Shown piece after piece: positions 31,379-58,196 of a stretch of DNA of 64,000 nt. The first letter of the stretch is position 1, and each line of letters opens with the position of its first letter. The position numbers and the translations under genes were made by a program. Source of the stretch: Giardia intestinalis (Eukaryota); assembly GCA_000002435.2 (NCBI GenBank), contig CM018790.1, one strand, 5' to 3'. The notes beneath the pieces are model-generated. The model worked only from the letters and a program-made list of their open reading frames with translations. It was not told where the DNA came from and did no database searches.

Positions 31379-34300
31379 CTAAATTGTTAGTGGCTGGAGA
31401 GATCCATTGCCTGCGCATCCGCGCTTGCACACTGTCAGGCCGAGTGCAAGGCCAATGGCCCCGCCTACAAGAACGGCCACGCCAAGGGTGATCCCTGTGA
31501 TCGCGCCTGGGCCGAGGCTACGCTTGACCGACGAGCCTCCGCAGTAGTTCTCCAGGGGGAGATCTCCGTCCGCACAACGGAGGCAGAGGACGGCGCCTGA
31601 CCATGCCTGCGCCTGGCAGAGCCCGCACCCGTGGATGCCTGCCATCCGAAGCCCCTGGGGCGCCGTCTGGTCGCAGGGCACACAGTCCCGGGGGCCTCCG
31701 AGGGGCGTCGCCTGGAAGTACCCGTCGGCACAGGCCAGACAGCTGGCTGCCGACGAACAAGCGGCGCACAGAGGGGGGCATGCCAGGCAGCGGTCGCCTG
31801 CCAGGTGCCAGCCCCTCTTGCAGGAGGTGCAGACGCCCCCGTCGCAACGGGCGCAGCCGGCCGCGGTGCACGGGCTGCACGAGCCCCCGGAGAGCCCGTA
31901 GCCCTCCGCGCAGGCGTGGCACGTGACCCCCGCCCTTGTCAGGTCTGCTGCGCACACGGCACAGTGTGGAATTCCCGTGAAACCGTTCTGACTTGTTGCG
32001 TCATCGCACGGGCGGCAATCGGACGGAGCAGAGACAGAGCTCTGCGTCGAGTAGTATCCCTGGCTGCACGCGCTGCATGTAGTGGCAGATGTGCAGCGGA
32101 GGCAACCAGGCACGCAGGGGATGCATTCCCTGCCGCTTGTCCAGAAGCCCTCTGCCGGACAGTCGCGGGGGCACAGGAGCATCCCGTCCAGAGTCAGCGC
32201 CTTGCGTCCACTCTCGCACGCCAGACAGACGACCGGGCCCACGCGATCAGCGAGGCGGCACCTGCTGGCGCTGGAGTGGGTCGGCCTGACCTCGACGGCG
32301 TTCTCGTTGCATCCTGTGCACGCTATGCTTTGCTCCCTACAGAGGCACTGCGGAGGGCAGATCTTAGGGACGCACTCTTCGCCGTTCCAGATGTGCTCTG
32401 GGACGCAGCTGGTGCATCTCGTGCTTGTACACGTTGCACAGTTGTCGATCGCACACGGGATGCAGCTGCCGGCGGCCTCGTAGTACGCCACTGGACAGAC
32501 TGCATGGCAGGTCACCTCTGTCCCGGTCGAGAGCGCCTTGTAGCCCGGGAGACAGTCCTTGCACAGTGCGGGGCCCGCTACCTTCGGAGCCTCACAGAGC
32601 CTGCAGCCACTCACTCCCACCCAGCTGTCCCTGCCAGATGTGTCCGAGCAGGCAAGACAGGTTCCCAGGCCAGGCGTGGCGAACGTGCCAAAGTACCCCT
32701 CGGCGCACTCTTTGCACCTATCAGCCCCCATACCATCGCACGTCTTGCACGCCGGGTGGCACGCAATGCAGGACGTACTCTGGAGATAGTATCCGGCCCT
32801 GCAAGCGGTGCACGTGTTGGGGTCGTCTACGCACGCGCCGCAGTTGGGATCGGAGCAGCGCACGCAGCCCTTGTCTGTCTTGGAAAAGCCTGCCTCGCAT
32901 GCATTGCACCCGGACGTTGACTCCGTGGTGTCTCCACAAATGCTCGTCCCCGGCGCCCTTCCCTTTGTGTAGCAGGCGCCCTCGAAGAGGAACATCCCGT
33001 CTCCGCAGTGCGAGCACACACCCTTGCTGCAGATAAGTCCCTCCTTCGGCTCTGCGCACGTGCCATCCAGGGGAACCTCTCCGTCAATCAGGCAGCGCCC
33101 GCAGACGACCTGGCCGTCGACGACCGCTGCATCGCGCTCATCACAGATGCCCGTGCCGGGGTACTCGCCTGCGGAGTAGCAGCCCCCCTGGTAGAGGAAG
33201 TAGCTCCCTCGGCACGCGGTGCAGCGGCCCTTCTTGGCGTCCTTTACGCATGGACCGGCAAGTGAGCGAGCTTCTCCAGGATAGAGTGTGCAGATGCCGT
33301 CGATCGGCACGTAATCACTCGACGCGCACTGCGAGCACAGAGACCCGTCCATGACTGTGCAGGAGCCCCAACTACAGGCATCCTGCCCCACTCTTTTGCA
33401 GGGCTTCGTGCAGTATGCCCCGGCCCCGACGCCTGTCAGCGTGTAGGGCTGAATGCATTCTGTGCAGTACTTCACGTCTATCTCGCAGCTGGCGCAGTTG
33501 GAGACGGCGCAGGACATGCACGTCAGCGTCTCCTTATTGTGACGGTAGCCGGGTCTGCACCGCCGACAGGTCCCGGCTTCGCGGCCTGTTCCAAGGACCT
33601 CGCAAATCCCACTTCCAGGAGTAGTCGTGATATCATAGCAGCCTCCCTCGTGGAAGAAGTAGTTCTCGGGACATATGACGCATAAACCGCTGGAGCACGA
33701 GACACCATCTGGCACATCCTTTGTACACAGGCCATTTATTGGAAACTCTCCTGCAAGATTGCACTGCTTGCAATATGTGCGCCCTCCGACTGTCAGAAGC
33801 TCCCTACAAATGCCAGACCCGGGAGTCGCGGCAGGGTCATAGCACCCGCCCATGTAGAGCATGTATCCGCGTAGGCACCCTGTGCAGACACCCTTCCCCT
33901 TCTCGCAAACATAGTCTGTGTCATGCCCCGTGCAAGCCCCGTTGATCGGCCACTCGTCATCCAGCGCACACCTGGAACAGTACAGCGAGCCCATCGCCGT
34001 ACAGCTGCCAGCCTTACAGTTACCAGACTCTGATCCACTGTCGTTGCAGCTTTGGATACACCGCGAGCCGTCCTCGCTAGGAATGTGCTTGTCCTTGCAT
34101 CGCGTGCAGATGACCCTCTTTGGTGCCTCGCTTGGATAGCACTCTGTGCAGCCGTCAACGCCCGTGTATCCATTTGTTCCACCTGTATCATTACATAGGA
34201 TGCAGGACTCCTTTGTGGGATCGAGCAGGCCTGTGCTGTAGTACCCGGAGGCACACGATGTGCACACTCCTGCAACCGCTGAGTCGACGGCCACTGCACA

Positions 34301-37300
34301 AAGCACCGTTCCAGGCGAGCGTCCTATCTCGTAGCACCCCCCGGCGTGCAGGAAGAACCTTGGTCCGCAGCGTGTGCACGACGTGGGGCTTGGTGTGGCA
34401 GCGACACATTGCGATCTGATTGCCCTAGTGTCGGTCAGTGCAACGCATGAGCCATCGATCGGGACTTCCCCGTCTTGCTTGCATTGCTTGCAGATAGTGT
34501 ACGGGCCCAGCGTAGCTTGATGCTGGCTGTCACATATGGCAGTCCCAGCTGCTGCGCCTTTAGCATAGCAGCCCCCATAGTAGAGGAGGTGCGTGTCCTT
34601 GCAAGCCGCACACGTCCCGCTGGATGGGGTTGTACGGATGCAAGCGTCGTCATTTGCCTTGCACTTTCCGTCGATGATAACGCTGCTTAATAGCGCACAG
34701 CGGCTGCATGCAAGCGTGCCGTTGACATTGCAGTATCCTGCAGCACAGGACGTGGAAAGCAATCCAACGGGGCATTCCTCAATACATATGTTATTCCTCA
34801 GTGCAAATCTATCCTTGCAGACCTTACACCCAGTACTATCGCACTTCTTACACCCGGGTGTGCATGCAACACACGAGTTCCCACTGGCATAATACCCATC
34901 CTGGCAAGAGGCGCAGGTATTTGCCGCATTGCACGTCAAGCAGTGGAGCACGCTGCAAGCAACACACTTTTCGGCCGCAAGATAAAAGCCGTCTGCGCAT
35001 CCCGTGCATTTTGCTGCACTATCTTGACACGTCTTGCAGCTCTTATCGCACAGCTGACAGAACTCAGCAGACTCATACATCCCATCCGGACACTTAGTAA
35101 AGCATGCAACCGTTGCAGGACTTCCATCCTTGGTTATCTGGAATGACTTAACACCCTGTTTGCACGACTTGCAGATGCCATCCTCCTTGACGGTGCAGTC
35201 ATCCGAGACCTTGCACTCCCCATCAACGGGCACCTCATCCTTCTGCTTACACTTCGCACAAAACGACCCTGCGCCCGATGTCACGACATCCTGGGCGTCG
35301 CAGATGTCCCTCGCCTCGAACGACCCCGCTTCATAGCAGCCACCCTTGTACTTGATGTATCCGTGGGCGCAGTATTTGCAGGTGCCATTAGCTTGTTCAT
35401 ATTGTATGCACACGCCTGCGGCCACTGAAGCACACACGCCGTTGACTGGGCCCTCGGCGTCAGCAGCGCACTGGGAGCAGTAGAACGTGCCCAGGACATC
35501 ACACTTGTCCTTTCTGCACCTGTGCTCCTTGGGGTCTGCCTCTGCCTCAACGCACGTTTGCACGCACTCCGTTCCCCCATTCATTGGTCTGTAGAACTGC
35601 TCGCAGGCAACACAGACCAGGAGTCCGTTGGAAACCTCGCAGCTCTTGCAGTGGGGTATGCCCTTCAGCGTGTCGCTGTTCTCTGTGCACGGAACACACG
35701 AGTCGCTGACACTTGAGCGGTCGGGGGGCGGGTAGTATCCATCCTTGCAGGTGCTGCAAATGCCGTCATGCACTCCAAGGTCTTTGCAAACCGTGTTTCC
35801 AGGAGCCCTTTCTGCCGAGACGCAGCTCCCAAGCATCAGGAAGTAGTCGCTGCTGCAATAGTAGCACGTGCCAGTGGGGACGCGGTGCAGAGTGCACACC
35901 GCAGCCTCTGTGCTGCCGGGCGTAAGGCAGTGTCCATCGACCAGAAGGTCTGTCACGACTCCGCACTGGAAGCAGTATAGCGTGTTGCCTATTAGGTTAT
36001 GCCTAACGCACGCTTTACTCCCGGGAGGCGCAGCTGGATTGTAGCACCCGCCCATGTAGAGGATGTGGGTCGTCGCACACGACGCACACGTATCATTTTG
36101 TTGTGTTTGCGGTGTGCAAACATTACTATTAGTGGAGGTACACCTTCCATCCACGAGATAATCTGACTCTAGCGAACACCTAGAACAATACTTCCCGTTG
36201 AGCACGTTGCAGTAGCCCTTCAAACACTTTCCTGTCGCCTTGCTGCTCTCCTCTACTTCTGGACAGGATTCTTCGCATCGATTCTGCTCGTTCAAGATGT
36301 ACCTATCTGCGCAGTCTGTACAGGTAGCCGGTCCTGCTGCTTTAGGAGGCAGGCATGTATCGCAGTGATCTATTCCAGTATACCCGTTGCTTCCAACTGT
36401 ATCGTTGCACGCAATGCATGAGTCTATCGCCGTGCTAGCCACCGGGTTCTTGAAGTACGATTTGCCGCACTCCTCACAGACCCCGGCCCCGACCCTGGCG
36501 CAGATATCTGAGTGTGATTCCTGCCGCATGCATATTCCCCTGTGCATAAAGTAGCCGGACCCGCATGCAGTGCACTTGCTGCTTGTGCACGTATTTCCGT
36601 CAAGTTCTGCTGTGCATGACCCATCGACAGGGTACTCGCCCGCATCATTACACGCTTTGCAATAGGCAGTGCCCTTTTCTACTATCTGACTATCTTGTTT
36701 GCAGATCTCGATCACTGGCTGGGTAATCTTATAGCACCCGCCGTAGTATAGCAGGTGGGTTGCGGCGCAGCGAAGGCATGTTCCCGAAGAGGCATTCAGA
36801 CATATGCGGGCCCGTTCTCCTCCCAACGAGCAAACTCCATCTATGGGGACCTCGTTTGCCTCGCTGCATCTGCTGCAAAAGGTGTTGTCTCGAACCGTGC
36901 ATCCTCCGTAGATACACTTCCCTGGGCCGATGCCCTCCTCACAGACTTTTTCGCAGACCTTCGACCCCTTTGTGTTGTCCTTGAGGAAGTATCCCGAGTT
37001 GCAGCTGGTGCAGGAGGCTGCATCTCCGGAACAGGCCCGGCAGTTGCTAACCTCGCAGACCTTGCATCCGTTGCCCGATGACATGTATCCATCTTCGCAC
37101 TTGGAACAGGTGCTGGTGCTGTCGTCTTCATCTTTGCAGATAAGCATGCCAGGCATGACACCCTTTCGGTAGCATCCCCCGTTGTATAGAAAGTACCCCG
37201 ATGCGCAGGATGTGCAGGCGCCATCTTGTGCACTGTGCCCATCTAGGGTGGCTGTGCATATGCCGTCAACAGGACATTCTGCAGATGTGGCGCACCTTGA

Positions 37301-38929
37301 ACAATAAGTGTTGGAAATGGTATTGCAGTGTCCCGTTTTGCACTGTTCCGCCCCCTCAGCCCCTTCATGACAAACCTGCACACAGCTGTTGCCCTTGAGG
37401 ACATGCCCAGTGGTGCACTTTGTGCAGATAGGCATGGTCCCGCTGGGCTTGGGGCTGCACCTCTCGCAATTTGCGACCCCTACGATTGTGATAGTGGCCA
37501 CCGGATCGTTGCAGGGCTTGCAGTAGCCGCGCCCCCCGCTGAAAACCTCAAAGTAGACATCCTTTTTGCAGGACAGGCAGCTGTCGGCAGCACCGCTACT
37601 GCATGTTTCACAGGACTGGTGGCATGGTGCGCACGTGCTGCCACTGCGGTAGTACTTGTTCCTGCACACTTTGCAGCCACCCGTGCCGTCCAGCTCGTCG
37701 CATATGACGTTCCCGGGCGACGTCTCGTTTGAGTAGCAGCCGCCTTTGTAGAGGAAGGCTTTCGCTCCACAGCTTGCACATGTCGTGTCCGTGGGTGTGA
37801 CCGCAGAGCCCCGGGACGTCACACAGCCCACTGCTGCCACCTCTTGCGCGTCGTACCTCAAACAGACCCCTGAGACAGGCACGAAGCCCGGCTGCGCACA
37901 TCGGACACAGACCGTACGCTCCTGGACCTCGGAGGTCTCTGCGCACACCTCCTGCCCCAGAGGTTCTGCTACGCTATAGCAGCCTCCCTGAAAGAGCAAA
38001 TGCCCCTTGGCACAGACACTACAGGTGCCGTTGGGGGGATCGAATGGGGTGCAGATCTTCTTGTCATCTGCAGAGACGCATTTCCCATCAATAAGAAGGT
38101 CGCTACTGCTAGCGCACTGAGAGCAGTATCTGTTATTCAGCGCGGTGCACATGCTTGTTTTGCATTTGGTTGCCTGGCTATCGTGCTCATCACATGTCTG
38201 CGTACATCTTTTGGCAGTAAGGTCGTACGAGTACTTGCTCACGCATACACTGCAATCCTCTGGTCTTTCGCCTGTGCATGTGGCACAGTTGTCAGCGCAA
38301 GCGGTGCACTTACCCTCTTTAATGAAGTACTTTTCTTTACATAGAGTGCAAGTGATCTCGTCGGAGTTTTGAGAGCACTGTGCACAAGCTGTTACTCCAC
38401 CATCTGCAGCAGAGCACTCCTTACATTCGTTATTCTTGAGAAACCGATCTGACCGGCAACTGAGGCAGGACTGAGCAGTGTTGCTTGTGCACGTGGCGCA
38501 TGTGGAGTGGCAGGGCTTGCACTGGTGAATGCTGGATGTCGTGTCTAGAAAGAATCCATCTACACACAGCGTGCAGTATCCTGATGTAGCAGTTCTGCAT
38601 ATGCGGTTTCCGGGGCTATAGAGCACGTTATAGCACCCTCCCTCGTGGAGAAAGTAGCTTCCGTCGCGGCAAAGTTCGCACTTCCTGGCAGAGGTACTCA
38701 GCGGAGCCCCTACGCTGCCTCCGCAACCAGATGCTACTGCCCTGGGGTCAGTGAGGGGGATGCACACCCCGTTAATAGGCACCTCTCCGGGGATTGCACA
38801 CTCGGCGCAATATTGCCCGTCCAAAACTTTACAATTGTTTTCTGCACAGATAGCTGTATCTCGATCAGAGCCTGCAGCTTGGATGCATATCGAAAGAGCC
38901 GCGCCTATCAGCTCAAGAAAAAGAATCAT
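31379..38929 (-). CDS. Giant VSP-like high-cysteine membrane protein (HCMP), 2516 aa.
   Basis: Signal peptide, more than 13 GGCY motifs, CXXC pairs throughout, a single C-terminal TM, and a tail CKRGCAGNGSLQPLTI that is not the VSP CRGKA tail. The ectodomain consists of about 8 repeated ~300-aa modules. Confidence 0.85.
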   Translation of the reverse strand: MILFLELIGAALSICIQAAGSDRDTAICAENNCKVLDGQYCAECAIPGEVPINGVCIPLTDPRAVASGCGGSVGAPLSTSARKCELCRDGSYFLHEGGCYNVLYSPGNRICRTATSGYCTLCVDGFFLDTTSSIHQCKPCHSTCATCTSNTAQSCLSCRSDRFLKNNECKECSAADGGVTACAQCSQNSDEITCTLCKEKYFIKEGKCTACADNCATCTGERPEDCSVCVSKYSYDLTAKRCTQTCDEHDSQATKCKTSMCTALNNRYCSQCASSSDLLIDGKCVSADDKKICTPFDPPNGTCSVCAKGHLLFQGGCYSVAEPLGQEVCAETSEVQERTVCVRCAQPGFVPVSGVCLRYDAQEVAAVGCVTSRGSAVTPTDTTCASCGAKAFLYKGGCYSNETSPGNVICDELDGTGGCKVCRNKYYRSGSTCAPCHQSCETCSSGAADSCLSCKKDVYFEVFSGGRGYCKPCNDPVATITIVGVANCERCSPKPSGTMPICTKCTTGHVLKGNSCVQVCHEGAEGAEQCKTGHCNTISNTYCSRCATSAECPVDGICTATLDGHSAQDGACTSCASGYFLYNGGCYRKGVMPGMLICKDEDDSTSTCSKCEDGYMSSGNGCKVCEVSNCRACSGDAASCTSCNSGYFLKDNTKGSKVCEKVCEEGIGPGKCIYGGCTVRDNTFCSRCSEANEVPIDGVCSLGGERARICLNASSGTCLRCAATHLLYYGGCYKITQPVIEICKQDSQIVEKGTAYCKACNDAGEYPVDGSCTAELDGNTCTSSKCTACGSGYFMHRGICMRQESHSDICARVGAGVCEECGKSYFKNPVASTAIDSCIACNDTVGSNGYTGIDHCDTCLPPKAAGPATCTDCADRYILNEQNRCEESCPEVEESSKATGKCLKGYCNVLNGKYCSRCSLESDYLVDGRCTSTNSNVCTPQTQQNDTCASCATTHILYMGGCYNPAAPPGSKACVRHNLIGNTLYCFQCGVVTDLLVDGHCLTPGSTEAAVCTLHRVPTGTCYYCSSDYFLMLGSCVSAERAPGNTVCKDLGVHDGICSTCKDGYYPPPDRSSVSDSCVPCTENSDTLKGIPHCKSCEVSNGLLVCVACEQFYRPMNGGTECVQTCVEAEADPKEHRCRKDKCDVLGTFYCSQCAADAEGPVNGVCASVAAGVCIQYEQANGTCKYCAHGYIKYKGGCYEAGSFEARDICDAQDVVTSGAGSFCAKCKQKDEVPVDGECKVSDDCTVKEDGICKSCKQGVKSFQITKDGSPATVACFTKCPDGMYESAEFCQLCDKSCKTCQDSAAKCTGCADGFYLAAEKCVACSVLHCLTCNAANTCASCQDGYYASGNSCVACTPGCKKCDSTGCKVCKDRFALRNNICIEECPVGLLSTSCAAGYCNVNGTLACSRCALLSSVIIDGKCKANDDACIRTTPSSGTCAACKDTHLLYYGGCYAKGAAAGTAICDSQHQATLGPYTICKQCKQDGEVPIDGSCVALTDTRAIRSQCVAATPSPTSCTRCGPRFFLHAGGCYEIGRSPGTVLCAVAVDSAVAGVCTSCASGYYSTGLLDPTKESCILCNDTGGTNGYTGVDGCTECYPSEAPKRVICTRCKDKHIPSEDGSRCIQSCNDSGSESGNCKAGSCTAMGSLYCSRCALDDEWPINGACTGHDTDYVCEKGKGVCTGCLRGYMLYMGGCYDPAATPGSGICRELLTVGGRTYCKQCNLAGEFPINGLCTKDVPDGVSCSSGLCVICPENYFFHEGGCYDITTTPGSGICEVLGTGREAGTCRRCRPGYRHNKETLTCMSCAVSNCASCEIDVKYCTECIQPYTLTGVGAGAYCTKPCKRVGQDACSWGSCTVMDGSLCSQCASSDYVPIDGICTLYPGEARSLAGPCVKDAKKGRCTACRGSYFLYQGGCYSAGEYPGTGICDERDAAVVDGQVVCGRCLIDGEVPLDGTCAEPKEGLICSKGVCSHCGDGMFLFEGACYTKGRAPGTSICGDTTESTSGCNACEAGFSKTDKGCVRCSDPNCGACVDDPNTCTACRAGYYLQSTSCIACHPACKTCDGMGADRCKECAEGYFGTFATPGLGTCLACSDTSGRDSWVGVSGCRLCEAPKVAGPALCKDCLPGYKALSTGTEVTCHAVCPVAYYEAAGSCIPCAIDNCATCTSTRCTSCVPEHIWNGEECVPKICPPQCLCREQSIACTGCNENAVEVRPTHSSASRCRLADRVGPVVCLACESGRKALTLDGMLLCPRDCPAEGFWTSGRECIPCVPGCLRCTSATTCSACSQGYYSTQSSVSAPSDCRPCDDATSQNGFTGIPHCAVCAADLTRAGVTCHACAEGYGLSGGSCSPCTAAGCARCDGGVCTSCKRGWHLAGDRCLACPPLCAACSSAASCLACADGYFQATPLGGPRDCVPCDQTAPQGLRMAGIHGCGLCQAQAWSGAVLCLRCADGDLPLENYCGGSSVKRSLGPGAITGITLGVAVLVGGAIGLALGLTVCKRGCAGNGSLQPLTI

Positions 38930-54008: not shown

Positions 54009-55654
54009 ACGCTAATTTAGATAAGTTCAAGCGTGTTCGTGATGATCTAGGCTTTACAGGGCTTATGTACGCTGCTTGGACAAATGACATGGAGATGGTG
54101 AGACTGCTTGCAGATGACGAGCTCAACCTTAGCAACGGCCAGGGAAACACTGCTACTATAATTGCAGCCCTTAATGGGAGCGTTGATGCCTGTCAGTATC
54201 TTCTAACGCGAGAAACTATTGGGCTCAATGAGTTTGGGCACACGCCTCTCACATTAGCTGCAGCCGAGGGAGTCACGGCTACGATACCTGTGCTCCTTCC
54301 TTACTACGGAACCATGAAGGATGCAAACGGCTGGACGCCTCTGGATCACGCCGCAAGTAACGGACACATAGATGCAGTCAAGCTTCTCATTGCCGATCTT
54401 TCCCCACGCATTCTCTCCTTGGATTCAGCTATAGAGCATGCCATGCTTTCGGGAAACAAGCATGTTGTGGAGCTTCTAGCGCTTTGCAAAGACACTGTAA
54501 CTAGTTCTCCTTGCATTACATGTAACTACTATCGAACTCTTTGGGTCTCACAACTATCTGCTCCAACCTCTCGTAAAGATGAAGAAAAAGCACCCTTGGG
54601 AGACCAACCGTCTGGTCATGGACCGTTGCATACAGAGTGCCTCGATATATCTCTAGCAAGGATGGAGTGGAGCCACGTTTCTCAGATATGTAGCGAAAGG
54701 TTAGCAAGTGTCCGCAGCACTCGTAAAGGTCTAGCTACCCTCGACCGATACCTCTCTGCTCTACTTGCCCTTTGGGGCTCTTCTGGGCCCGAAGCCCCAC
54801 TCTACCAACCAGACTCTTCCCTTCACGGCATAACGCCCTTGATGGTAGCAGCATCCAGTGGACGTGCAGATCTAGTAGAAACTCTCATTACCGAATATCT
54901 AGGTAAGAGGAATAGCCAAGGGCTGACGGCTCTCATGATAGCTGCCCGGAGAGGGCATCTAGACTGCGTGAAGTTGCTCGTTCCAGAGGCAAAAAAGGTA
55001 GACATTGACGGCTATACCGCTCTCATGCATGCTGTCATGGCAAACGCAATGAGTGTGGTTGACTATCTTGCTGATTATGAATGTGGCATTCGCTGTCCTG
55101 ATGGAAACACGGCATTGCTGCTTGCAGCAAAGTTAGGTCACCCCAGAGTTCCTCCGTCACTGATTAAAGCAGAGGCAAAGATAAAAGATACTGATGGTAA
55201 CGTTGCCCTCATATACGCTGCTTTAGATAGAAACAAGCCGTTGATATCTCTGCTCTGTGAAGCAGAAGCAGGCATCTCTAACTATATGGGGCTCACAGCG
55301 CTCATGGCAGCTGCATATACAAACGATTGCGATACAATATTGTTGACTCTGTCGACTGGGAAGAAAAAAAGGATGCATGGAGGATTTACTGCCCTGATGA
55401 TTGCTGCCTGTCTTAACAACAGAGAGGCAGTCGAAGCCCTCGTAGGCCACGAGGCATTCTGTGTTACGGACACTCACTTTAGCGCTCTATTACTGGCCGT
55501 TGTATGCGGTTCGGTGGACGCGTCCAGGACTCTTGGACTTGTTGAGATGACCATACTGTCTCCTCATGGTCACAACGCGGTGACGCTTAGCGCTAACGGT
55601 CCATGTGGCTCTATAATATCGGATATATGTGATGGGATCAAGAACTCTGCTTAA
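53951..55654 (+). CDS. Ankyrin-repeat protein ('protein 21.1' type), 567 aa.
   Basis: N-terminal LWFNAIRRHDYAFVNANL...GFTGLMYAA followed by more than 12 ANK repeats. Confidence 0.8.
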   Translation: MLSRELWFNAIRRHDYAFVNANLDKFKRVRDDLGFTGLMYAAWTNDMEMVRLLADDELNLSNGQGNTATIIAALNGSVDACQYLLTRETIGLNEFGHTPLTLAAAEGVTATIPVLLPYYGTMKDANGWTPLDHAASNGHIDAVKLLIADLSPRILSLDSAIEHAMLSGNKHVVELLALCKDTVTSSPCITCNYYRTLWVSQLSAPTSRKDEEKAPLGDQPSGHGPLHTECLDISLARMEWSHVSQICSERLASVRSTRKGLATLDRYLSALLALWGSSGPEAPLYQPDSSLHGITPLMVAASSGRADLVETLITEYLGKRNSQGLTALMIAARRGHLDCVKLLVPEAKKVDIDGYTALMHAVMANAMSVVDYLADYECGIRCPDGNTALLLAAKLGHPRVPPSLIKAEAKIKDTDGNVALIYAALDRNKPLISLLCEAEAGISNYMGLTALMAAAYTNDCDTILLTLSTGKKKRMHGGFTALMIAACLNNREAVEALVGHEAFCVTDTHFSALLLAVVCGSVDASRTLGLVEMTILSPHGHNAVTLSANGPCGSIISDICDGIKNSA

Positions 55655-56600
55655 AGAGACTGCGAACCAATTTTTTCTTCTCCGCTGGGTCAATTGGGTG
55701 CCTGGCGTCTTCATACCCACCGGGTGGTATGCGACTACTATATTGTGGCGAGTCTCCATGAAAATCGGATCCCATTGAGGCGGTCAGGCCATGCCTGTCA
55801 CAGTACTGCTTCAAGTGGAGGATGTTCTTCTGGGTATGGCTAGGGTGATAAACCTCAAGATGCTTCATTCCGCTTTGAACAGCCTCCTCAAGGACCTTGA
55901 CGGTAGCATCCCAATCATACTTAAGACAAGCATGAGCAAGGACAGGGACTCCTCCCAGCTGAATTGCTCTTGTAATAGCGTACCGAAGAGGAAGCATTTC
56001 CTTTTTAAGTGATTCTATCGGCTCTTTTGCCAGATATTTATCAAATGACTCTCTTACCGTTGTGCAGTAGCCCTTGTGAATTAGGTAATTTGCAATGTGT
56101 GGTCTCCCAATGGTCCCGTCTGCTGTACTGGTCTTTTGGTTTATCCTATTGAGGGTGCAAAACTCGTCCCACGAGAGATCAAGGCCGTAGGTTGATGAGA
56201 GAACTTCGAGGCAAAGCTTTGCTCTTTCAATCCTTTTCTCGCGCAATAGAGATAGTTCTGTTTCTAGTTCCTTGAGGCCTGCAATGTCAGCCATGGTAGG
56301 GGGGTCTTGCTTGGTTAGGGAGAGGCGCTTGAAGGCCCTTTCGGTTCCCATTGCAAATCGCGGGAAATAAACGAGCAAGTGGGACTCTTTGCCGAGGAGG
56401 TTCTCCGTGGTGATCTCGACTCCGGGAAGGAAGACTAGGTCTGGAAGATTGAGGGCCTCGAGGCGGAAGTACGCCTGCAGTGTGTCGTGGTCTGTGAGCG
56501 CGCAAAGGGCCGTATCGTTGGAGTATGCCATCTCGAGAACGGTCTCCGGAGGGTGCTCCCCGTCGGAGAGCTGCGTGTGCATGTGCAGGTCGATATGCAT
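55638..56600 (-). CDS. PHP-domain metal-dependent phosphoesterase (bacterial TrpH/YciV/RNase AM-like), 320 aa.
   Basis: IDLHMHTQLSDG, ALTDHDT, LPGVEIT, GGVPVLAHA and ASMGSDFHG reproduce the PHP His/Asp metal-binding motifs in the TrpH order. Confidence 0.85.
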   Translation of the reverse strand: MHIDLHMHTQLSDGEHPPETVLEMAYSNDTALCALTDHDTLQAYFRLEALNLPDLVFLPGVEITTENLLGKESHLLVYFPRFAMGTERAFKRLSLTKQDPPTMADIAGLKELETELSLLREKRIERAKLCLEVLSSTYGLDLSWDEFCTLNRINQKTSTADGTIGRPHIANYLIHKGYCTTVRESFDKYLAKEPIESLKKEMLPLRYAITRAIQLGGVPVLAHACLKYDWDATVKVLEEAVQSGMKHLEVYHPSHTQKNILHLKQYCDRHGLTASMGSDFHGDSPQYSSRIPPGGYEDARHPIDPAEKKKLVRSLFKQSS

Positions 56601-56663
56601 TTAAACGCCTGCAGACTATCCATATAAATATAATGCGCATCCTGTAGACTGGCCCGCGTCCAG

Positions 56664-56736
56664 GGTTTCATAGTGTAGTTGGTTAGCACATGGGACTCTG
56701 AATCCCATAACCCCGGTTCGAATCCGGGTGAAACCG
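56664..56736 (+). tRNA. tRNA-Gln (anticodon CUG), 73 nt.
   Basis: Acceptor stem GGTTTCA/TGAAACC. D-arm with GG. Anticodon stem TGGGA/TCCCA with loop CTCTGAA. T-arm CCCGG-TTCGAAT-CCGGG. Near-identical to eukaryotic tRNA-Gln-CTG. Confidence 0.9.
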
Positions 56737-56737
56737 C

Positions 56738-56741
56738 TTTT
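56738..56741 (+). terminator. Pol III T4 terminator directly after the tRNA.
   Basis: TTTT begins 2 nt after the discriminator base. Confidence 0.5.
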
Positions 56742-56752
56742 CCCCGGCGAAA

Positions 56753-57139
56753 ATGGGGGGTGCGACGCGCAAGAAGAACAAGACGAACCACCGCGAAGTC
56801 AGCCGCAGGGTGAAGACCAAGCGCCGCACAAAGGACGTCGACGAGATCCTCGAGATGCTCAGCCCGGAGAACGTGGAGAAGATCAAGAACAGGGACCCCG
56901 ACCCCCTGCTCCCCGGGGACGGCATGCACTTCTGCATCATCTGCGACAGGTACTTCATCAGTGCAGAGGCGCTGGAGACACACAAGGCCACCGGGAAGCA
57001 CAAGTTCCAGGTCAAGCGCGTCAGGGAAGGCGGCATCTCCCCCAAGGAGACAGAGCTCTTTGCCCGCCGCGGGCTTCCCGATAACGGGCGGAAGATTGTA
57101 AGAGATGAGAACGGTGAGCTGATAGGATTTACTGATTGA
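56753..57139 (+). CDS. ZNF593/Bud20-type C2H2 zinc-finger ribosome-biogenesis protein, 128 aa.
   Basis: KTKRRTKDVDEI...DPDPLLPGDGMHFCIICDRYFISAEALETHKATGKHK parallels ZNF593 (KAKRRRPDLDEI...[35 protein letters not shown]). Confidence 0.8.
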   Translation: MGGATRKKNKTNHREVSRRVKTKRRTKDVDEILEMLSPENVEKIKNRDPDPLLPGDGMHFCIICDRYFISAEALETHKATGKHKFQVKRVREGGISPKETELFARRGLPDNGRKIVRDENGELIGFTD

Positions 57140-58031: not shown

Positions 58032-58090
58032 GTTGGACAGGCCGCAAAGGGCAGCGCCAAAAATCTCGTGCTCGGTGATCACCCAATTCT

Positions 58091-58150
58091 GTTGATGTAT
58101 GGTATGGTATGGTAGGGTAGTGTATAGTAGTGTAGTGTAGTGTATAGTAT
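58091..58150. repeat. Degenerate (GTATG)n/(GTAGT)n microsatellite in a divergent promoter.
   Basis: gtatggtatggtatggtagggtagtgtatagtagtgtagtgtagtgtatagtat. Confidence 0.6.
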
Positions 58151-58196
58151 TAATTATGCATCCAATTGTACATCTCTTTTTAAAGACTCTTTGGGG

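Follow-up and report, generated by a model that had tools for sequence, protein, structure and literature searches.

Within a 64,000-nucleotide stretch of Giardia intestinalis DNA (assembly GCA_000002435.2, contig CM018790.1; the whole stretch is called the window below), two divergently transcribed protein-coding genes, one for a PHP-family phosphoesterase and one for an orthologue of the ribosome biogenesis factor ZNF593/Bud20, are separated by a short intergenic region that also holds a tRNA gene (Table 1). An initial annotation had proposed a tRNA-Gln(CUG) here from the sequence, and both the ARAGORN scan it suggested and a comparison with Rfam RF00005 bore this out. ARAGORN reported a single tRNA in the window, a tRNA-Gln with anticodon CTG at 56664-56737 (+), and the RF00005 match at 56664-56736 was full length, with 70.4 bits (gathering score 29), an E-value of 2.4e-13, and all four stems paired. 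This is a strong match that no tRNA scan would miss. Putative A and B boxes were recognizable, although both are structural needs of any tRNA and their presence does not prove use as a promoter. One nucleotide, C56737, separates the discriminator G56736 from TTTT at 56738-56741, the candidate terminator for RNA polymerase III (Pol III). On the plus strand, T4 or longer does not recur until 475 nt after the tRNA, at a point 72 nt downstream of the ZNF593 stop codon, and the sense strand of ZNF593 itself is free of T4 runs.

The identities first given to the two flanking genes were supported by their Pfam domains and by relatives in the Protein Data Bank (PDB). The PHP protein was identical to XP_001708223.1 of G. 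intestinalis WB C6, and its PDB relatives (9etk, 2yb1, and 7ug9) are TrpH/YciV-type phosphoesterases. The ZNF593 protein was identical to XP_001708219.1 of the same strain, contained the Pfam domain zf-C2H2_jaz, and matched human ZNF593 (PDB 6lss_9; E 2e-14, aligned from residue 6) and yeast Bud20 (E ~1e-13). In all, four proteins encoded in the window, these two included, were identical to proteins of G. intestinalis WB C6, which identified the organism. A literature search found no paper mentioning GL50803_16877 or GL50803_8929.

With the PHP ATG as the reverse complement of 56598-56600 and the ZNF593 ATG at 56753-56755, the gap of 152 bp (56601-56752) and the 63 bp between the PHP ATG and the tRNA (56601-56663) were as originally described. 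The T-run had been placed 12 nt upstream of the ZNF593 ATG; the close spacing was confirmed, but the real gap (56742-56752) is 11 nt, so that the distance was off by one. The tRNA and its terminator occupy 78 bp, so that 74 bp remain free, as is usual for Giardia. In the WB genome, which has 65 tRNA genes, the median gap between genes is 81 bp (PMC7641422), and intergenic spacings of 30-177 bp are typical, a divergent promoter of 153 bp, that of ran/phd, having been published (PMC1885649). The other divergent gaps in the window, taken between first-ATG open reading frames (ORFs), measured 16, 35, 51, 73, and 211 bp, and that of a neighbouring control region was 165 bp in WB. The tRNA itself is far above chance expectation, whereas its placement is not, given the gene density of Giardia. 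Odd by yeast or human standards, the layout is ordinary in this ultra-compact genome, and its surprising features follow from that compactness and from initiator-only promoters.

Table 1. Coordinates of the features at the PHP/tRNA-Gln/ZNF593 locus (positions in the window).
Feature	Position	Strand	Basis or remark
PHP-family (TrpH/YciV-like) metal-dependent phosphoesterase gene GL50803_8929, 320 aa	55638-56600	-	ORF, Pfam PHP
Candidate initiator-like element of PHP, TTTAAATG on the minus strand	56598-56605	-	A/T-rich tract abutting ATG
Intergenic region, 152 bp	56601-56752		Between two divergent protein-coding ORFs; read from sequence
Spacer from PHP ATG to tRNA 5' end, 63 bp	56601-56663		Includes CAG 56661-56663 directly 5' of the tRNA
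AT-rich block CATATAAATATAATG, candidate TATA-like/TBP site	56621-56635	.	AT-richness peak
tRNA-Gln(CUG) gene, 73 nt	56664-56736	+	ARAGORN, Rfam RF00005
A box TAGTGTAGTTGG	56671-56682	+	Matches TRGCNNAGTGG-like consensus
Anticodon of tRNA-Gln(CUG)	56698-56700	+	
B box GGTTCGAATCC	56715-56725	+	Matches GGTTCGANTCC consensus
Discriminator of tRNA-Gln(CUG), G	56736	+	
Oligo-T run, T4 (T5 in two lineages), candidate Pol III terminator	56738-56741	+	Sequence
Gap from T-run to ATG, 11 nt	56742-56752	+	Variable GC-rich spacer CCCCGGCG, then A-tract 56750-56753 of (G/A)AAAATG
ZNF593/Bud20 orthologue GL50803_16877, pre-60S ribosome biogenesis factor, 128 aa	56753-57139	+	ORF

Despite the adjacent tRNA, ZNF593 is among the more highly expressed genes. 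In the published expression data (Table S1 of Franzen et al. 2013, PMC3610916), where GL50803_16877 corresponds to CH991763:1219028-1219414 on the minus strand, it has 951 fragments per kilobase per million (FPKM) in WB, 696 in AS175, 479 in P15, and 709 in GS; by comparison, the top 5% of genes in that study have a median FPKM of 1119. For the PHP gene GL50803_8929, at 1219567-1220529 of the same scaffold, the table gives FPKM values of 51, 206, 77, and 128 in these isolates. At 0.83, the GC content at third codon positions (GC3) of ZNF593 was the highest among the 24 ORFs of the window (next, 0.79 and 0.66). From what is known of codon bias in Giardia, such a high GC3 fits strong expression. 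In budding yeast, tRNA genes mediate silencing of adjacent Pol II genes (those transcribed by RNA polymerase II). The Giardia locus resembles that situation in having a Pol II promoter directly beside an active-looking tRNA gene, but the outcome is the opposite: the FPKM of ~950 in WB implies that the tRNA does not silence its neighbour. ZNF593 can thus be strongly transcribed by Pol II although a tRNA gene ends 16 bp before its ATG, and there is no sign of silencing. Any interference between the two polymerases, a question raised in the initial annotation, would not prevent such expression.

Conservation of the locus among Giardia lineages

The locus was compared in five lineages, namely assemblages A (WB), B (GS; L001-L003, L007), and E (P15; L004), and two more divergent ones from public read sets (L005, ERR3333378; and L006/L008/L009, SRR17450160, ERR3333379, ERR3333382). 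The leftward PHP gene followed by the rightward tRNA-Gln(CTG) and ZNF593 genes was found in all five, the gap measuring 152 bp in the three named assemblages and 155 bp in the two further lineages. The tRNA was 99-100% identical across lineages, the sole difference being one D-loop T/C in P15, compared to 44-73% identity in the adjoining spacer, and is under purifying selection. Also conserved within the gap were the CAG before the tRNA, the T-run (T4 or T5 in every lineage), the A-tract with the ATG, the A/T tract of PHP, and an AT-rich peak fixed in position. AAAATG was invariant and the coding sequence after it conserved; the annotated ATG is where nucleotide conservation and homology to ZNF593/Bud20 set in. 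The spacer that separates the T-run from the A-tract, on the other hand, differs between lineages in its sequence and, with a 3-nt indel, in its length (8 nt versus 10-11 nt), such that the tRNA lies 16 or 19 nt from the ZNF593 ATG, depending on the lineage. This pattern of a conserved T-run, a drifting spacer, and a conserved A-tract with ATG fits a terminator followed by an initiator.

The same comparison bears on whether the tRNA could be a silent or decaying copy, the region then being merely a bidirectional Pol II promoter with tRNA-like sequence in it. Such a copy would not be expected to remain 99-100% identical where neighbouring neutral sites have diverged by 30-60%, nor to keep a perfect cloverleaf (the 70.4-bit match above) and a conserved terminator. 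Furthermore, a genome of only 65 tRNA genes can hold no more than one or a few copies of most isoacceptors, and the 24 window ORFs use CAG for Gln more often than CAA (338 versus 253). We find this explanation scarcely credible.

The 63-bp spacer between PHP and the tRNA had the same length in all five lineages, although ~40-55% of its bases had changed between the most divergent ones. Its ungapped identity of 44-73% compares with 37-73% at the third codon positions of PHP and a random expectation of 26%, suggesting that the spacer, outside its conserved elements, drifts at about the synonymous rate. In contrast, the control divergent region (WB 58032-58196, 1.3 kb away) differed in length among these genomes (116-165 bp), with many indels. 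When AT-richness was computed in 8-nt windows, the best windows started at about -42 to -33 before the tRNA, and the peak fell in the same place in all five lineages (about -42 to -26), its sequence itself being degenerate. In WB, the AT-rich block is at -43 to -29 from the tRNA 5' end and at -21 to -35 from the PHP ATG. The invariant spacing and the position of the block near both units point to a possible shared TBP site, and we propose tentatively, with rather less than even confidence, that one TBP site there may serve both PHP and the tRNA.

An upstream element of this kind has parallels elsewhere. The tRNA genes of Schizosaccharomyces pombe and plants have a TATA element at -30, and archaeal promoters use TBP and TFB. 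The Giardia locus is similar in having an A/T-rich element ~30 bp upstream of the tRNA and an oligo-T terminator after it; it differs in that the candidate element is degenerate and conserved in AT-richness and position, not in sequence. An archaeal analogy has already been drawn for Giardia Pol III, for which homology searches found TBP and BRF but not TFIIIC, Bdp1, or TFIIIA, and Giardia 5S genes also carry an AT-rich upstream region (PMC3369914). Because only TBP and BRF have been detected, Pol III is probably positioned on the tRNA-Gln gene mainly by the AT-rich block. Giardia TBP has been reported to be highly divergent (PMC1885649).

Outside these lineages the linkage was not seen. In Spironucleus salmonicida (L010) and on a diplomonad-like metagenomic contig (L011), the ZNF593 orthologue had no tRNA within 3 kb, and in Spironucleus no PHP gene was called over that distance either. 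The PHP/tRNA/ZNF593 linkage thus does not extend across diplomonads. A word-indexed search with ZNF593 returned proteins of the G. intestinalis complex only, without a Giardia muris orthologue; an exhaustive search returned fungal and other diplomonad sequences, with no recognizable G. muris protein among them. A scan of metagenome contigs with the tRNA-Gln sequence gave 0 matches.

Predicted transcription starts and the relation between the units

The 5' untranslated regions (UTRs) of Giardia mRNAs are 1-14 nt long and its ribosomes do not scan (PMC3610916). In genome-wide transcription start site sequencing (TSS-seq), the sole promoter consensus was an A/T-rich stretch spanning -5 to +5 in which a central A is the start (e.g., TTTTTAAAATG), and nothing was conserved further upstream (PMC3792122); an A-rich initiator has been described before Giardia start codons (PMC7641422). 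Earlier studies of single genes had described two AT elements, one initiator-like and located at the start site, the other TATA-like and ~30 bp upstream (PMC1885649); the TSS-seq data suggest that the latter is not general in Giardia (PMC3792122). For both protein-coding genes of the present locus, an initiator-like tract was found within ~14 nt of the ATG, from which the starts were predicted. The A/T tract of PHP resembles the TSS-seq consensus and is kept in the five lineages as TTTAAATG, GTAAAATG, TTCAAATG, or TATAAAATG (coding strand), and transcription would be predicted to start at one of the A residues of TTTAAATG, giving a 5' UTR of 0-2 nt. For ZNF593, the predicted start is in the A-tract 56750-56753, with a 5' UTR of 0-3 nt. 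Its GAAAATG fits only the A-rich half of the published consensus; A-rich tracts before the ATG also occur in other genes of the window, e.g., atcgaaaATG of V-ATPase C. In the place of a TATA-like element at -30, PHP has the AT-rich block, whereas ZNF593 has the T-arm of the tRNA and no AT-rich element of its own. A near-palindrome, TTTT-N8-AAAA, was also considered as a split symmetrical initiator and rejected, its middle being non-palindromic in the two divergent lineages.

Among known systems, the ran/phd and alpha2-tubulin promoters of Giardia itself come closest (PMC1885649). The ran/phd pair has head-to-head genes ~150 bp apart, an AT-rich initiator at each ATG, a TATA-like element ~30 bp upstream, and 5' UTRs of a few nucleotides; the present locus shares the head-to-head spacing and has candidate counterparts of the initiators and, on the PHP side, of the TATA-like element, with 5' UTRs predicted to be as short. 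Here, however, a Pol III gene fills about half of the gap, leaving 63 + 16 bp free, the ZNF593 side is without an AT-rich -30 element, and the locus is known from its sequence.

Taken together, we favor, with a probability of roughly 0.7, a reading in which the 152-bp region consists of three independent transcription units packed edge to edge, as is normal for Giardia. On the PHP side, Pol II would start at the initiator-like TTTAAATG, with the AT-rich block ~20-35 bp upstream acting as a TATA-like element, and the same block, ~30-43 bp upstream of the tRNA, would be the main determinant positioning Pol III, which would stop at the T4-5 run directly after the tRNA. The pre-tRNA is predicted to begin near the conserved CAG or up to ~10 nt upstream. 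Pol II would then start ZNF593 in the A-tract of AAAATG, 9-12 nt past the T-run, producing a capped mRNA with a 0-3-nt leader and no tRNA sequence. The core promoter of ZNF593 would be essentially an initiator alone, the DNA of an upstream element being the 3' half of the tRNA, and Pol II and Pol III would use the shared DNA in turn, without preventing high ZNF593 expression. The initial annotation was right in its logic that Pol II must initiate ZNF593 either inside the Pol III unit or directly behind it. Given the 1-14-nt UTRs of Giardia and an initiator abutting the ATG, the 11-nt gap is sufficient for a normal start at AAAATG.

Several points weigh against this reading or limit it. The 10 nt before the ZNF593 ATG (-10 to -1) are the least A/T-rich of the 24 window genes (3/10 A/T), and since the gene is nevertheless highly expressed, the initiator alone may not suffice to explain its output. 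The tRNA, the geometry, the conservation, and the fixed 63-bp spacing are results of this analysis and the mRNA levels come from the literature, while the start sites of both mRNAs and of the pre-tRNA are predictions; use of the AT-rich block by TBP, and its sharing between Pol II and Pol III, are likewise presumed from sequence. T4 is a minimal terminator that may be of uncertain efficiency in Giardia, and the apparent absence of TFIIIC is drawn from homology searches. Finally, the AT-block pattern comes from this one of the 65 Giardia tRNA loci, and the control for the spacing is one neighbouring intergenic region.

The weak A/T tract also raises the question of functional coupling, in which the tRNA or its Pol III complex would serve as an upstream promoter or chromatin-opening element for ZNF593 and perhaps for PHP. 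The tRNA would then be part of a Pol II promoter, and a ribosome-biogenesis gene would be driven by, or co-regulated with, a tRNA gene. High expression of ZNF593 (FPKM 479-951, GC3 0.83) in spite of the weakest A/T tract and the lack of its own -30 element would be explained in this way, the B box sequence TTCGAAT falls at about -33 to -27 from the predicted ZNF593 start, and the arrangement and the 63-bp spacing are unchanged in five lineages. There is also a precedent in trypanosomatids, where small nuclear RNA (snRNA) and 7SL genes need the A and B boxes of a divergent upstream tRNA gene at a fixed distance of ~104 bp, as shown by mutagenesis (Nakaar et al. 1994; PMC4950102). The likeness is the divergent tRNA at a conserved distance, ~104 bp from box A there and, here, 71 bp from box A to the PHP ATG. 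However, the dependent genes of that system are Pol III small RNAs, and this defining feature is missing from the present locus, where both neighbours are protein-coding Pol II genes with poly(A)+ mRNA; the precedent thus concerns Pol III targets. Furthermore, the linkage is absent from S. salmonicida and the diplomonad-like contig, indicating that ZNF593 does not generally need the tRNA; TSS-seq found no required upstream element genome-wide in Giardia (PMC3792122); the distance from the tRNA to the ZNF593 ATG tolerates a 3-nt indel; and synteny over such divergences would be expected anyway in a gene-dense genome. We therefore regard functional coupling as unlikely.

In a related proposal, the region would be an integrated Pol II/Pol III module. 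The invariant 63-bp spacer would keep a single degenerate AT-rich TBP site at a set distance from the PHP and tRNA starts, and this site would nucleate BRF/Pol III towards the tRNA and Pol II towards PHP. The body of the tRNA gene, occupied by Pol III and with its B box at about -30, would provide ZNF593 with upstream promoter function or nucleosome exclusion, and so account for the high output of this gene from a minimal AAAATG initiator. This is also improbable in our estimation; if true, it would mean that expression of a tRNA and of a ribosome-assembly gene is coupled in a eukaryote without detected TFIIIC.

Alternatively, the ZNF593 mRNA could derive from a transcript running through the tRNA, made by Pol II from the AT-rich block or by Pol III past the T4, and be translated with a tRNA-derived leader or freed through cleavage by RNase Z. 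Giardia AT-rich elements fire both ways and yield many sterile transcripts (PMC1885649), making some plus-strand Pol II transcripts of the tRNA plausible; T4 is minimal, with no back-up run of T4 or more until 72 nt past the ZNF593 stop; and a precedent exists in Trypanosoma brucei, where Pol II transcribes tRNA-Sec (PMC2943599). A tRNA-derived leader, which the initial annotation had raised as a question, would however be at least 90 nt long and structured, and would include an upstream ATG at 56689 within the tRNA, ATGGGACTCTGA, whose reading frame (ATG GGA CTC TGA) closes after two further codons. In Giardia, translation works best on capped mRNAs whose leaders are very short (Li & Wang 2004, as cited in PMC5124965; PMC1885649) and ribosomes do not scan (PMC3610916), and because of this preference and of the upstream ATG, such a leader is unlikely. 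RNase Z or Pol III products would in addition be uncapped, the T-run and the A-tract have each been conserved, separated by a spacer that drifts, and the high level of ZNF593 poly(A)+ mRNA fits a dedicated Pol II start. Origin of the message by co-transcription is thus very unlikely, although Pol III read-through may occur as a minor by-product.

Wider relevance and neighbouring features

Under the favored reading of independent packed units, the locus is of little importance beyond Giardia, but it illustrates clearly how tightly transcription units can be packed in a eukaryote, with a Pol III terminator 9-12 nt from a predicted Pol II start and one AT-rich patch that plausibly serves two polymerases. 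The strict 63-bp spacing, together with an AT-rich block ~30 bp from both Pol II and Pol III units, was not found described in the available literature and is mildly interesting and experimentally tractable. If functional, the spacing and the shared block would offer a small, tractable system for Pol III initiation with TBP and BRF only, and for the sharing of DNA between Pol II and Pol III.

Beyond its Giardia orthologues (73-98% identity), the PHP protein was, among the matches listed, most similar to TrpH/3',5'-nucleoside bisphosphate phosphatase-like proteins (~29-35%). The non-Giardia relatives among the matches listed were mostly bacterial where named, plus a few archaeal metagenome-assembled genomes, and no named eukaryotic sequence was found among the 120 matches listed, many of which are unnamed. 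The gene is a candidate for lateral transfer into Giardia, as judged from these matches.

Both protein-coding genes overlap convergent neighbours at their 3' ends, PHP with an ankyrin-repeat protein gene by 17 bp (55638-55654) and ZNF593 with a gene for a 300-aa hypothetical protein by 11 bp (57129-57139). The published 3' UTR of ZNF593 is ~155 nt (PMC3610916, Table S1) and, given the convergent overlap, runs antisense into the neighbouring gene. Three long minus-strand ORFs (56287-56640, 56435-57001, and 56683-57045) were rejected as genes, being antisense to or overlapping conserved genes, such as the GC-rich ZNF593, and the tRNA. A spurious 117-aa ORF over the tRNA is annotated as a gene in the GS assembly of assemblage B (L003 2931-3284, -), a call that is likely an annotation artefact. 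A gene number missing between the two orthologues (e.g., between AS175_771 and AS175_773) was considered as a sign that the tRNA had been annotated and was dropped, as it could equally stand for a spurious ORF of this kind; identifiers of the AS175_771/773 type were not listed in the supplement checked.

Elsewhere in the window, a cysteine-rich repeat ORF of VSP type (2516 aa, 31379-38929, -; Pfam VSP, 15 stretches, E 2e-175) coincides with a GC-rich part of the window (GC 0.56-0.62 versus ~0.46 elsewhere). The control region 58032-58196 lies between the gene for the 300-aa protein and a Sec7-domain gene, which probably starts at ATG 58197 rather than GTG 58140. Its length varies through short GTAGTGTA/GGTATGGTA-like repeats, whereas an initiator-like CTCTTTTTAAAGACT ~11 nt upstream of the ATG is strongly conserved.

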